NCBI GenBank assembly: GCA_964016885.1
Contig: OZ024741.1
Coordinates: 295,492,001-295,556,000, forward strand
Reading direction: 5' to 3'
DNA from: Eledone cirrhosa
Lineage: Eukaryota
Length of the DNA: 64,000 nt
The notes below the pieces were generated by a model, which worked only from the letters and a program-made list of their open reading frames with translations, searched no databases and was not told the DNA's origin. The translations under genes and the position numbers were made by a program. Shown one piece after another: positions 6,611 through 60,790 of the stretch. Positions within the stretch are counted from its first letter, which is position 1; every line of letters begins with the position of its first letter.

Positions 6611-6722
6611 GCTTTCTGATGAAGTGTAATAAATAATTATGTATTGCATATGATTGAACAATATATTTTGTAGTCAGCATATGTAGACAATTTATAATAG
6701 ACATGGAAACATATGTCAAAGC
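6611..6722 (+). ncRNA. Minimal hammerhead ribozyme motif with long, degenerate stem II
   Basis: gcttt-CTGATGA-(~83 nt)-GAAA-catatg-TC-aaagc; stem I gcttt/aaagc; palindromic acatatgt; followed by a short tail and TA-rich sequence. Confidence 0.65.
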
Positions 6723-7067
6723 AAATAAGTTCATAATCTCTTCACGCCAATGTTTTATTTTTCTTGGTGCAATACTTACTTATATTAATATATATATATA
6801 CATACATACACATATATATCATGAAAATGATATAAATATATATATTTGCGTGCATATACATATACCATACATATGCATATACATATATATGGTTGGTGTT
6901 AGGAAGGGCATCCAGCTGTAGAAATCAAGCCAGAATCAGTTCCCGTCCCACCCTTGCAAGCAGGGAAAAGTGGACGTAAGATGATGATGATGATGATGAT
7001 ATGTATATATAAACATATATATATGATACATATATATATACACACATCATATATATACATATATATA

Positions 7068-8155
7068 AATCATCATCGCCGTTAAACATCCATCTTCCAG
7101 ACTAGCATGAGTAGGACCGATTGACCCTTAGAGAGAAAATCAGGTCAGAGGACCATGTTAAACTCGCCCGGAGCAGATTTTGGCTTGGTTTCTACAGCTG
7201 GGTGCCCTTCCTAAAGCCAACCACATTTACGGTGTGTGCTGGGTGCTTTTTGTCATGTCACCTACATGACCACATTACATTGTAGACTGGGCACCTTTTG
7301 TTGCATCACCTACATGACCACTTTACAGTGGGGACTGGGCACTTTTGTCTTGGAACTAGGGACGGGGGAGGAAGCTTGGGGAATTTGCAGACATAGGTAA
7401 TAAGGGAGGGATGGTTACTGCAAAGGGAGGTGTATGAGAGGAAGGTGTTGCCTATTAAGTATAAGCCTCATCCTGAGAATAATAGAGGGCGGGTCTTCTG
7501 TAATACTAAATAGCCCCAGAGTTCATGGTCCTGTGTCATGGCCTTAGTGAGGTGTAATTGTGCAAGGTCAGCTTTTATTACCTCATCGCAAGTCTTCCTA
7601 GGCCTGTCAACTTTACAGCTACCATTAACTTTGAGTGATCTGAACCTTTTTATACAGCTGTCATCCTTCATACACATCACATGTCCATACGAACGCAATC
7701 TCCTTTCCTGCACGCAACAACTGATCCCTCTTATGCCTAATTTCTCACGCAGTACATTTATACTTTGCCATTCACATATATTACTATTGCACATCCAGCA
7801 AAGCTTGGAGGTTTCATTCCTTTCCAATCTTCGCAGGTCCTCACACAGTACCCAGGTCTCGCTGCTGTGCAGCATTGCTGTTCGTATACATGCCTCATTC
7901 ATTCTGTCTTTCGTTTTGAGGGAAAAACCTTTTGTAGTTAGTAACGGTAGTAGCTCCCTAAACTTTCTCCAGCCAGATCTCACTCTGGTTACTGTGCTTT
8001 CAGAACACCCGCCCCCACAACTGATTTGGAAACCCAGGTAACAGAAACTATCTACCATTTCAACCGAGCCCTCTGAGGATTTGAAGATGATTGTATCCTG
8101 AGGGTTCTTGCACTGGCCATAAGTAAAACCTACATTCTTTGTTAGCCTGCCAGAG
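7068..8155 (-). mobile_element. RTE-clade LINE 3' fragment (end of RT, C-terminus, 3'UTR, (ATG)n tail)
   Basis: ORF 7468..8199 VDSFCYLG..GWRKFRELLPLL..ERRLRSYGHV; 3'UTR shared with 12125-12420. Confidence 0.9.
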
Positions 8156-8534
8156 AATATATACACACACACATATACTCTCGGGTGTTGACTAATCACT
8201 CCCCTCCCCCGCTTATTAATTTTTCATATTCCCTTCACTTATTAGACTTGACTAATCTATCTCCTGTGAAATGTTATTTCAAGTGGTATCATTCCTGTGA
8301 CAATTAATTTTCTTTAGACATTAAAAATCATTATGCATGATAAAAAAAAGAATATTACAAGAAATCCCATTATAAAATAAATAGGATGAGTTTGGGTCTC
8401 AATATGTAAACTGAACGACTAATTCTGATTTTAAAAAAACAAGGGAGACAACCTTGAAAAATTATCGATTTTTCCAAACCCCTTACCCTTTCACTTATTC
8501 CATCCCAACCCCGTATGATTTGGGACCCAAGAGC

Positions 8535-8605
8535 ATATATATATATATATATATATATATATATATATATATATATATATATATATATATATATATATAT
8601 ATATA
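8535..8605. repeat. (TA)n microsatellite
   Basis: Directly visible. Confidence 0.97.
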
Positions 8606-10607
8606 GGGATAAAAGCAAGTTCTTTACTCCATTGCTTTATTTGATATATATATATATTCCTTTTGAACAGTGTGTATTTATATTTCAGAACAACAAAAGT
8701 CAGTGAATGAGGTAAACAAGATACAAGACGTTTTATACCTAATGAATAAATATAAAATCCTTCAGACAATGCAAACATTTATATTTTAAACCTTCTTATA
8801 TAATAGATAATTCCAATAAGTGAATTATCTGAATAAAAACAGCAAACAAAAAAAATGATGTTTTTGTGAGCATATGAAATTGAAATATGATGTCCAACTT
8901 GAAAGTATATATCCTAAATTCCAAAGTAGTATGTAGATGGAAGATATACGTTTTGGAAAAATAGGAATATTAAAATAAGTGGTTTTGTTTCTATTCTCAA
9001 GATTAACAAAATTCTATCCACTGCAATTTAACTAAAACAACAACAAAGCAATGAAGACATTGTTAGCATCACATAAACTTGTTAATAAATACTAGCAATA
9101 TTTGTCTATATTTCTTCAAACGTAAGCCAACATAAAATTCTCTGTAAAATATGAATAGATAATGAGGATCTTTTCTCAAATCTACAAGGGCCAGTCAAAA
9201 AGTAATGCCTTTTTTATCATAGCAGGCTTATTTGAGTTAAAATTTGGCACAAAAGTAAAAGCACATATCTTCTTGAGACTAAACTATCTCATTACGTTTT
9301 TCTGATAGGTATGAGTGACTGAGATGATTTCAAGATGGCCGCCTCCATAAAATTCTTCCACCATAGTAAGACCCGTTGTTAAGTTTTGTTCTAAACACAA
9401 GCTAAATACCTCCAAATACTTGATTTTTGGTTTTAGACTTGGATAATTTTTATTATCATATAACAAATATATAATTTTTAAAAGAAATACATACATATAA
9501 TCAATTAATTATTGCTAGAAATCTTATAAATATAATACACAAAAATATACAGTCAAAGCGAAAAAAGAAACATCAATTCAACAAGAAGTGCATCAATCAC
9601 TTACTCACCACAAGCAACAGGGAACATTTTTAATGCAAGCCAACATGTTCACAGTGTTACCGCTGGTGATGGCAAGGCTAAGGTGCTAAAACAACCAAGC
9701 ACCCTCATGGACTTGGTTCAAAAATTATTTGAAAATCTTTGGTTGTGTCTTTCAATGGAAATAGGGAAATGAATGAGTTAAATTACTGACTTGTTAGCAA
9801 TACTTGTTTTTGGATCCACCATAGTAACAGTGATTATTGATTCCTTAACTGGTAATGGAGTTGTCAGTGTTTTGGCATGGGGTGTGTCTGGGCTAGCACC
9901 CAGACCTCTCCTGGTTGAGGAAGGGGCAGGAGGAAGAGGAGGAGGAGGAGGAGAAGAAGATATACTGATAGTGGCTTTAAATACAATTATTTCACAGTGA
10001 TCAGTTAAGAGTAATGTAAGTGGAAACGGAGAAGAATGTAATAACATTTGAAGCTGTAGGCCCAGTTGGTCTCACTTTTTATATTCACAGTGAAATTGTA
10101 TAAACACAAAGACAAACTTTATAATTGACCAATGTATTTAATATATTTTAATTATGTTGTTTGCACATTGGTTTCTTTTTCGCATTAATATTCATACTTT
10201 ATCCTCATTTAATCTCTTAGCTACTACTCCCCTTGAAATTACAATCTTTGGTTCTATTTTCTTTGAAATAACAGAGACAGTCTAGAAGTAGAGAATACTT
10301 TTTTGCAATATAGGAACTAGGCAAAAACTTCAATCTTGGTGTGACAATGAAATACTCCTAGTATACTCTGTAAAGGGGTTGATGATGAAACAGGGATACC
10401 ATAGAGTACAGATGACCTTTTATTCTTCTTGAGAACATGACAACCTCTCTAGTGTTGATGTCATGACAAAATACAGTAGACTTTGTAAAGTGTTTTGTGT
10501 TATGCAAGCTATCCCCCTGTAGAATCCATACTAAGAATTAGAATGTATTTGAGAGATGTGATCACCCTGAACCTGTGTAAGGGGTCAGTAACTCTAGATA
10601 TGAACAA

Positions 10608-10982
10608 TTCAGAACCAATTTATGGAAGACATCCTAGGAGAAGAGCTGCCCAAACCTTCATCGATCAACTCTCAGAAAATACAACCCTCAGAAGGGAGCA
10701 GTTGCCAGGAGCAATGGAAAATCATGAATTGTGGAGAGACTTTGTCAGGAAAGTTCAACTTTGGTCCACAATGATGATGAAGATGATCTATCTATCTATC
10801 TTTCTAGCTATCTATCTACTGTGGGAACCAACTCATGGAAGACACCCTAGAGGAAGACCTACCCGAACCTTTATCAATCATACTTCAGTATGGAGCAGTT
10901 ACCAAGAGCAATGGAAAATCGTAAATTGTGGAGAAACATGGTCAGTAATGTTCGATTGTGGTCACAAAGATGATGATGATGA
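10608..10982 (+). mobile_element. Two tandem 3' ends of an RTE-like LINE family
   Basis: EP.HGRHPRGRP.RTFID..LP.AMEN.ELWR, present twice, each ending in (GAT)n. Confidence 0.65.
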
Positions 10983-59809: not shown

Positions 59810-59833
59810 ATTATATATATATATATCATATAC

Positions 59834-60137
59834 ATCATCATCATCATCGTTTAACGTCCATCTTCCACGCTTGCATGGGTTTGGATGGGAGTTTTCCCAC
59901 TTGAGGCAAGATTTGTTGTCCTGCTCATATAGGACTGTCTGGCAGGTTTTCTACGGCTGGATGCCCTCCCTAACACCAACCACGTTTACAGTGTGGACTG
60001 GGAGGTTTTTACCGTGTTACCTACACGGCCACATTACAGCGTGGACTGTGTGTTTTTTGTCGTGACACCTACATGACCTCATTTGCTTCGGCCTGGATGT
60101 TGTGGTACCAACATAACTTCACATTTAAGGGGGTGGT
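59834..60137 (-). mobile_element. RTE 3'UTR in inverted orientation
   Basis: Reverse complement of ~45007-45315. Confidence 0.88.
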
Positions 60138-60138
60138 A

Positions 60139-60518
60139 AATCAAAATGGATGCAGTAAAAACCTGTTATACCATTATTCACCAGAGTACTCGATACTTGG
60201 AGTAGTAGGGTGTGGTAATATGAAAGAGTCAGGACCCCGACGGCTGAGCTCTTGCCGTTTCAACAGCTAGTTCCAAACTAGATGTTGAAACATCAAGAGC
60301 TCAGCCACCGGCATACTCTTTCCTATATATATATATATATATATAAGGGAAAATGTTTAACCCCGAAGGCAGAGCTCAAGCCGTTTCAAAGGCTATTTCA
60401 GTCCAGAAATAGCCGTCGAAACAGCTTGAGCTCTGCCATCGGGGTTAAACATTTTCCTATTACCCACTCTACAACCCTAAGTATTGAGTACTCTGGTATC
60501 TTACCACACCTCCTTTGA
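60139..60518. mobile_element. Hairpin+tail elements type B (60139-60323, minus) and type A (60348-60518, plus)
   Basis: Homologous to 34784-34974 and 34491-34676; separated by (TA)n. Confidence 0.75.
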
Positions 60519-60531
60519 TATATATATATAT

Positions 60532-60790
60532 GAAGTGTTTCCGTAGGAAAGGTAAAGGAAAAGAGAGTGTTCTATGTAGACTACAGAGCTTTTTAGTTAT
60601 GTAATAAACACCATAAGATAATTATTTCATTTACCAAAGGTTTCACGAGGACAGACGAGCCTGACATAGACGTCTGACTTCGCTCGTCCATTCTGACGAG
60701 CGAAATCAGACGTCTATGTCAGGCTCGTCTGTCTTCATGAAACCTTTGGTAAATGAAATAATTATCTCGTTTTTTTTTTATTACATAACT
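60532..60790. mobile_element. Foldback element: ~95-bp arms plus ~60-bp unpaired tail, in (TA)n
   Basis: Arms ~60596-60688 / 60695-60790, loop cattct. Confidence 0.7.

Follow-up and report, generated by a model that had tools for sequence, protein, structure and literature searches.

A stretch of 64,000 nucleotides (nt) from the genome of Eledone cirrhosa (assembly GCA_964016885.1, contig OZ024741.1, positions 295,492,001 to 295,556,000; hereafter the window, to which all coordinates refer) was analyzed for hammerhead ribozyme motifs. With a probability of roughly 0.85, these motifs are the hammerhead 3′ ends, or pseudo-long terminal repeats (pseudo-LTRs), of high-copy Penelope-like families, two of them truncated elements of the Hydra clade and four of them likely non-autonomous passengers; a Hydra-type reverse transcriptase (RT) with a GIY-YIG endonuclease likely inserts them into (TA)n, and cleavage is predicted to occur in dimers only. 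The motifs fall into families with (TA)n junctions, 5′ truncation, partial tandems and tail-out inverted pairs; most families have two fixed 3′ ends, and intact open reading frames (ORFs) lie between two direct hammerhead repeats. The surroundings in the window are rich in TA microsatellites and RT fragments of the long interspersed nuclear element (LINE) type, within a genome of 3.0 Gb.

The search descriptor consisted of a helix I of at least 3 bp, CTGANGA, GAAA, a self-complementary helix III region of even length and UH. An initial strict version that demanded a pair at the base of helix II recovered only three of the six cores named in a first-pass annotation of the window, and this requirement was relaxed. 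All six cores were then verified at 6611(+), 15911(−), 16530(+), 19911(−), 22234(+) and 34351(+), each position being the exact outer end of helix I. The six matches compare with a mean of 0.165 (maximum 2) in 200 block-wise dinucleotide shuffles, and stricter descriptor settings gave five matches versus 0–0.01 in shuffles. When an odd helix III loop was permitted, a seventh intact core appeared at 60693(+). The elements of the type-I core (CUGANGA, GAAA, A15.1-U16.1, H17) are present in all seven. The self-complementary stem III described for the cores was found as well, except that the core at 34355 carries ATGT, a G-U form of the ACGT found in some copies of its family. The description of the cores as minimal was not borne out: helix II measures 83, 45, 104–106 and 13 nt in the named cores and 39 nt in the additional one.

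The flanks had been taken to be unrelated throughout, but the six cores amount to four insertions, because 15979(−)/16535(+) and 20042(−)/22241(+) are inverted arms (the repeat finder output was dominated by minisatellites and its inverted-repeat list alone was used). The first pair forms a single family A insertion (300 nt, 99% complementary), with an inverted arm that has a long 3′ end (15783..16279, minus strand; hammerhead 15984-15911, core 15979, predicted cut after 15916) and a direct arm that has a short 3′ end (16274..16654, plus strand; hammerhead 16530-16603, core 16535, ATATATAT, 45-nt helix II, predicted cut after 16598); the two arms share 6 nt (16274-16279). The second pair (228 nt, 95% complementary) belongs to family B and comprises an inverted pseudo-LTR arm with a short 3′ end (19853..20163, minus strand; hammerhead 20051-19911, core 20042, 104-nt helix II, predicted cut after 19920) and a pseudo-LTR with a long 3′ end followed by (TA)n (22120..22570, plus strand; hammerhead 22234-22372, core CTGAAGA at 22241, 106-nt helix II, ACGATCGT, predicted cut after 22365). 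Family C is represented by the 5′-truncated 3′ end of a Hydra-type Penelope-like element that runs into (TA)n (6318..6795, plus strand; hammerhead 6611-6722, core 6616, GAAA 6706, helix III ACATATGT, 83-nt helix II, predicted cut after 6717), and family D by a short solo non-coding element (34258..34479, plus strand) with a compact hammerhead (34351-34386, 13-nt helix II). The seventh core lies in an inverted pair of family F (60520..60791), in which the minus arm has the long end and lacks the 5′ core box while the plus arm carries core 60693 (39-nt helix II, a 3-bp helix III with a 3-nt loop, predicted cut after 60751).

Three of the four sites listed as decayed hammerheads proved to be family members and the fourth is doubtful. 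The site at 59513 (ACTAGT) belongs to family E, a retrozyme-like 427-bp unit of which about 1.25 units with a terminal direct repeat are present (59280..59810, plus strand); both core boxes are kept and helix I is weakened, and most other copies of the family are intact. The site at 46210 (GAAACGATCGT) is part of a decayed hammerhead of a B-related family followed by (TA)n (46100..46275, plus strand), with CTGGTGA at 46106 and 86% identity over 207 nt to a copy at locus L125 with an intact core box. The site at 15471 lies in a copy of family D at 79% identity whose core is broken (15455..15598, plus strand), and the site at 42645 is a doubtful remnant of the same family (42620..42720, minus strand) with weak similarity only (37 nt, 76%, E 6e-4). 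No hammerhead was among the Rfam matches listed for the window (150 of 177) and nothing reached the gathering score at six family loci, which is no argument against function because the Rfam models cover other architectures; the microRNA matches from Rfam were dismissed as TA-repeat or inverted-repeat artefacts.

Each family recurs in its own genome. First-look candidate places, which are lower bounds and not copy numbers (40 scored per family), amount to 1,295 for A (16530), 2,204 for B (22234), 1,030 for C (6611), 2,241 for D (34351), 2,084 for E (59513) and 1,518 for F (60693), and the best full-length matches show 87–99% identity on different chromosomes. The loci examined numbered 30 for A, 25 each for B, C and D, and 20 each for E and F. 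Overall, the 297 loci fetched (1.47 Mb, overlaps kept) contain 328 hammerhead matches in 44 clusters, 17 of which occur in at least two loci. This part of the original proposal is supported: several unrelated multi-copy families carry type-I hammerheads with a palindromic helix III near a 3′ end adjoining (TA)n, in a Penelope-like architecture. An unbiased grid of 60 segments of 10 kb, taken in 40-Mb steps on 20 large contigs (600 kb), gave 48 matches under loose and 34 under strict settings, versus 4.6 and 1.1 in 30 shuffles.

The families differ in their units. Family A has a non-coding unit of ~1.3 kb with partial tandems in 3–4 of 30 loci, family E has its 427-bp unit in tandems, family D is a solo element of ~250–300 nt with no full tandem in 25 loci, and family F is short and often present as inverted pairs, with no tandem in 20 loci. 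The longest stop-free frame in the A and E units is 85–108 aa, and neither unit gave a tblastn match to either of two proteins tested. In families B and C the sequence upstream leads into a Penelope-like endonuclease (for C, 9 of 25 loci show homology to the Hydra endonuclease), and both are 5′-truncated coding elements, whereas A, D, E and F are likely non-autonomous and retrozyme-like, as their sequences suggest. The label non-autonomous, given to all elements at first, is therefore kept for these four and withdrawn from B and C. Likewise, the non-coding families are indeed invisible to ORF-based annotation, and Pfam is blank even on an 834-aa ORF of family B, but the copy of family B in the window does have a recognizable GIY-YIG remnant.

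This remnant (20175..21489, plus strand) comes from the C-terminal portion of a Hydra-clade ORF, now broken, and retains the RT thumb region, the CxCX5C linker and a GIY-YIG domain without CCHH (weak GIY-YIG match, E 0.021); it is 68–79% identical to the intact 834-aa ORF. First-look candidates in the genome number 42,693 for the remnant ORF and 29,938 for its RT. Five places with long ORFs were fetched, of which four hold ORFs of 828–834 aa with DKT, YRDD, CxCX5C, YIGAT, CxxC and CxH, while the fifth (801 aa) lacks CxxC and CxH; DKT is located at position 132 in all five, which are ORFs of family B. The 834-aa ORF has YRDD at 363 and YIGAT at 728, that is, an RT followed by a C-terminal GIY-YIG domain. 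At three loci (L277, L278 and L280) the ORF lies between two direct repeats (203–382 nt, 97.9–99.5% identity), each with a hammerhead whose helix II measures 105–114 nt, at a spacing of 5.15, 4.62 and 5.43 kb. The 834-aa protein gave no match in Pfam or PDB; some members of its Atlas neighbours at 0.96–0.99 carry GIY-YIG, HTH_animal or RVT_1. By these motifs and by-eye comparison with the published set (Craig et al. 2021; defined in section 11 of PMC8557442 and aligned in its supplement), the hammerhead-linked ORFs match the Hydra clade. The Naiad or Neptune-type enzymes proposed initially do not match them: with a C-terminal endonuclease, DKT and a hammerhead they depart from the Naiad pattern (N-terminal endonuclease, DKA, no canonical hammerhead), and they lack the Neptune traits DKG, CX2-5CxxC linker and CCHH endonuclease. 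A Hydra ORF ends at most 2.6 kb upstream of 46 of 79 family B matches, a figure that is inflated because many loci were fetched by ORF, and of 5/47, 3/10 (family C) and 1/9 matches in other clusters. Five loci (L089, L102, L123, L134 and L141) at first seemed to tie D, E and F to Hydra ORFs; these were dismissed as neighbours, since wider stretches around L134 and L141 place other hammerhead families after those ORFs and the remaining three were ruled out by orientation.

The 3′ ends of the copies show a consistent organization. A (TA)3 sequence is present within 16 nt downstream of 151 of 182 termini, versus 7.8% of random positions. Two fixed 3′ ends past the predicted cut were identified in A (~56/132 nt), B (~65/206 nt), E (~210/270 nt) and F (~37/101 nt), while D has one and C mostly one. 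Inverted pairs with the tails outward combine one short and one long arm in 29 of 33 cases (A 11/12, B 7/7, F 8/9, E 3/5), and the remaining pairs have an arm that is truncated or an end of low complexity that is ambiguous. Where copies are in tandem, the additional tail sequence continues into the next unit. A tail of 30–40 bp at one end has been described before in the sections of PMC8557442 on such elements.

The architecture of the motifs carries signs of selection. Among the grid matches chosen without the helix III condition, 72 of 79 interior positions are Watson–Crick self-complementary (shuffled mean 31, maximum 50). Although copies of one family do not count as independent, the diversity of palindromes between families does: the 17 recurring clusters have 16 different helix III sequences, 14 fully self-complementary, two with an odd loop and one neither. 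This is the pattern expected under selected dimer pairing. Two copies of an 8-nt palindrome pair as a self-duplex (−3.2 to −10 kcal/mol), and a single copy makes no hairpin; the ATGT at 34355 forms neither. The motifs, open at helix I, have a helix I of 4–9 bp, a paired helix II base and a self-complementary helix III, and helix II reaches at least 25 nt in 14 of the 17 recurring clusters (26–106 nt). The helix II domains of family B fold at z −2.7 to −7.8; for several singleton matches, which are possibly noise, folding is no stronger than in shuffles. Covariation is seen at the first helix II pair of family B (G-C 10, A-U 8, G-U 3, broken 1; n = 22), and the switch between G-C and A-U is probably one lineage-level event. 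In A, C and D, as in part of B, G10.1-C11.1 is preceded by an extra nucleotide, and the other B copies have A-U instead; since RNAalifold mis-paired the core in alignment A1, only helix II pairs were taken from there. Monomer folding alone gives the hammerhead shape for only some sequences, and the hammerheads are predicted to cut only as palindrome-paired dimers; cleavage in dimers has been published for such motifs (PMC4209133). A further recurring family (nine matches in eight loci, among them L038, L203, L204, L208, L224 and L229) has a non-palindromic helix III, AGAACT.

A cycle that would connect these features can be proposed. In a read-through RNA with two hammerheads, the helix III palindromes would pair and both motifs would cut, which would release unit-length RNA of 4.6–5.4 kb for B, 1.3 kb for A and 0.43 kb for E. 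Since the measured 3′ ends extend ~35–270 nt past an intact cleavage junction, a linear monomer released by cutting would not serve as the template; reverse transcription would instead copy a re-ligated circle or the uncut precursor. With (TA)n nicked by the endonuclease, synthesis would be primed at either of two fixed positions on the template, and two such events at a single target would yield an inverted pair in which one arm ends short and the other long. As for the long helix II, it probably represents a structured insertion that is tolerated because it lies outside the catalytic core.

A number of observations count against the overall reading. The loci were the best-scoring matches to the window queries and therefore over-represent young copies and, in families A and C, the short end. 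At the matching N-terminal place RWR, not RWK, is found (one ORF printed), and the units of 4.6–5.4 kb exceed the published size of "generally <3 kb". Family E has A-U in place of G10.1-C11.1 and family F has the reversed pair (C-G), and the monomer folds of 22230-22375, 59508-59552 and 60686-60760 miss the hammerhead shape. No Hydra ORF was identified upstream of any match of A (0/43), D (0/22), E (0/26) or F (0/20), and a single D match has the end of a Neptune-type element upstream.

The lack of a linked Hydra ORF in these four families, together with the presence of intact Neptune-type ORFs in the genome, raises the alternative that A, D, E and F are moved mainly by Neptune-type (or Naiad) proteins and that the Hydra link is limited to B and C. 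A Neptune-type element with DKG and CX4CxxC is located in the window at ~23.8–26.2 kb (23771-26231, minus strand), and intact ORFs of 796 aa elsewhere (L292-L297) have these motifs too, with RVT_1 followed by GIY-YIG. The 3′ region of this family has a short and a long end, both at (TA)n, and the family could mobilise the four others. However, in none of the six loci do the intact Neptune-type copies carry a canonical hammerhead themselves, and an Rfam scan of one such copy detected no ribozyme in its 3′ region. A hidden hammerhead was considered at 23440-23740(−), downstream of the element in the window, which resembles the 3′ end of the intact copies, and was rejected after 20 family loci gave no intact core of their own. 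The family thereby departs from the statement, in PMC8557442, that hammerheads are universal outside Naiad/Chlamys. Moreover, Neptune-type sequence yields 6,749 first-look candidates, far fewer than the two Hydra queries, and in A, E and F the base of helix II is flanked on either side by an additional nucleotide, as in most of the Hydra hammerheads tabulated in the supplement of PMC8557442. Naiads, which lack canonical hammerheads, are remnants in cephalopods according to the same source, and the genome here was not searched for Naiad. Mobilisation of the four families by Neptune-type (or Naiad) proteins is therefore judged unlikely, and both abundance and the style of the hammerheads favour a Hydra enzyme over a Neptune-type one for them.

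The hammerhead-less Neptune-type family also bears on the ribozyme itself: because it spreads likewise, a ribozyme is not required for this integration pattern. The motifs might accordingly be mostly inert now, weak passengers that serve at most as a structure recognised by the RT, with cleavage outside the cycle. This would fit the low in vitro activity reported for Penelope minimal hammerheads in PMC4209133, the measured 3′ ends that extend beyond an uncut junction, the two-end pattern shared by the Neptune-type family, and the fact that most copies are solo or tail-out, without a same-strand partner. It leaves the catalytic boxes and the self-complementary helix III, kept across many unrelated families, to be accounted for; as the palindromes differ between families, such conservation is not easily understood unless dimer cleavage or ligation is under selection, and the inert state is considered quite improbable. 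Chance matches in AT-rich, repeat-rich DNA would supply some of the 48 loose grid matches and of the singleton clusters, given the 4.6 per 600 kb found in shuffles, but none of the 200 window shuffles reached the observed count, the strict grid count is 34 versus 1.1 and the families recur at 87–99% identity across chromosomes, so that this explanation is refuted for the six named cores and has next to no probability overall.

The preferred reading, Hydra-clade pseudo-LTR hammerheads accompanied by retrozyme-like passengers, describes a known kind of system. Earlier publications report pseudo-LTRs that contain hammerheads, insertion targeted to (TA)n and a hammerhead-bearing Hydra element from Octopus (PMC8557442 and PMC4209133), the same general kind of system is treated in PMC6765202, and a supplementary row of PMC8557442 lists Hydra-1_Obim from Octopus bimaculoides with a hammerhead and (TA)n preference. 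As set out for the Hydra clade in the sections of PMC8557442 devoted to it, the elements here have a C-terminal GIY-YIG domain, DKT, CxCX5C, no CCHH, CxxC and CxH, (TA)n targets, a type-I hammerhead near the 3′ end, partial tandems, and inverted 5′-truncated copies with a tail at one end. They differ in a helix II of 83–116 nt in B and C, versus at most ~26 nt in the Hydra rows of File S2 (whose descriptor may exclude long ones), in their 4.6–5.4 kb units with ORFs of 828–834 aa, in tails of ~60–140 nt versus 30–40, and in a hammerhead sequence unlike that listed for Hydra-1_Obim. The (TA)n bias and the tandem and inverted architecture are shared with the Naiad and Neptune clades as well. A long helix II is listed in the PMC8557442 supplement for a Selaginella element.

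The motifs also resemble the minimal hammerheads of metazoan Penelope elements, as described by Cervera & De la Pena 2014 (PMC4209133): type I, in pseudo-LTRs, with a short helix I, an extra nucleotide after A9, a palindromic helix III region, many families per genome, mostly solo truncated copies and some opposite-strand pairs 100–700 bp apart. In contrast to those motifs, helix III is usually a palindrome of 6–10 nt and helix II often has 26–116 nt versus 7–8 bp. Animal non-LTR retrozymes, proposed to be non-autonomous Penelope-like derivatives (Cervera & De la Pena 2020, PMC7229834; Li, Clavereau & Pollet 2026, 10.64898/2026.07.22.740005), are non-coding units with one type-I hammerhead in tandems or monomers; the passenger families are similar in these respects, and a helix II base mismatch has been described in the same sources for an axolotl family. 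Family E (427 bp) and a 310-bp tandem at locus L059 fit this class. The tandem at L059 consists of four units, its four cores are spaced 310 bp apart, and its compact hammerheads (ACGCGT palindrome) are those of a textbook-style non-LTR retrozyme. Other passengers depart from the typical tandem unit of ~300 bp: the A unit measures 1.3 kb, D was seen only as monomers and F mostly as short inverted pairs. A literature search found no report of a long helix II in Hydra elements or of octopus-wide hammerhead abundance, although further literature may describe long-helix-II variants; the long helix II, the abundance and the pairing of short and long 3′ ends go beyond the published reports found.

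Further repeats were noted in the window. Fragments of LINEs in which a PHD-finger-like module follows the RT domain (weak Pfam matches), presumably RTE-like, lie at 43145-44962(+), 56402-59086(+), 12425-13814(−) and 7468-8223(−). Two low-complexity open frames of 246 and 270 aa at 1343-2864(−) are possibly the first ORF of a LINE; a Pfam scan of one of them gave no convincing match. Young minisatellites at 95–97% match occupy 32967-33776 (42 bp), 36264-37141 (61 bp), 37236-37636 (119 bp) and 46318-50196 (42 bp), the last with 91.5 copies starting beside a (TA)n tract. Weak tRNA-like Rfam matches just below the gathering score, at 26575-26632(−) and 35099-35170(+), are probably the heads of short interspersed nuclear elements. 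A repeat of ~190 nt (34491-34680(+), 19426-19682(−), 60348-60520(+)) consists of a ~105-nt hairpin and a tail with (TA)n on its flanks; no hammerhead core was seen in it, its tail has eight matches in the 600-kb grid, and it may be a ribozyme-less passenger of the Penelope type.

The net density in the grid is ~55 intact motifs per Mb, which extrapolates to ~170,000 intact motifs genome-wide (bootstrap 105,000–245,000), an estimate that counts motifs rather than activity, is drawn from 0.02% of the genome and leaves out small contigs. The axolotl genome is much larger than the 3.0-Gb genome here. Despite this difference, the estimate exceeds the 126,247 hammerheads given for axolotl in PMC7229834, and minimal motifs number 2,000–9,000 per genome in the counts of PMC4209133. 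The words "hammerhead" and "ribozyme" do not occur in a recent repeat annotation of Octopus vulgaris. These figures suggest that ribozyme censuses using descriptors with a short helix II undercount such genomes. A more far-reaching proposal, tentative and rather doubtful, is that this is the densest hammerhead set counted so far (~55 per Mb, >100,000 intact motifs and dozens of families, mostly in a long-helix-II form that standard models miss), in which helix II (26–116 nt, structured and specific to each family) would be a functional module, for example an RNA address for the RT of each family, and the family-specific palindromes would be a pairing code for cutting in trans among dispersed copies in host transcripts.

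The role of the hammerhead in Penelope-like elements is described as an open question in PMC8557442 and PMC4209133, and no in vitro retrotransposition system for these elements existed at the time of PMC8557442, according to its discussion of the matter. In the genome of E. cirrhosa, young families have both intact ORFs and paired hammerheads, non-coding passengers are present beside them, and the Neptune-type family, lacking a hammerhead, provides a natural control. As the system is of a known kind, the gain lies in scale, architecture and testability: should the more far-reaching proposal hold, what the ribozyme does in Penelope-like transposition could be tested directly on intact Hydra ORFs flanked by hammerhead pairs.

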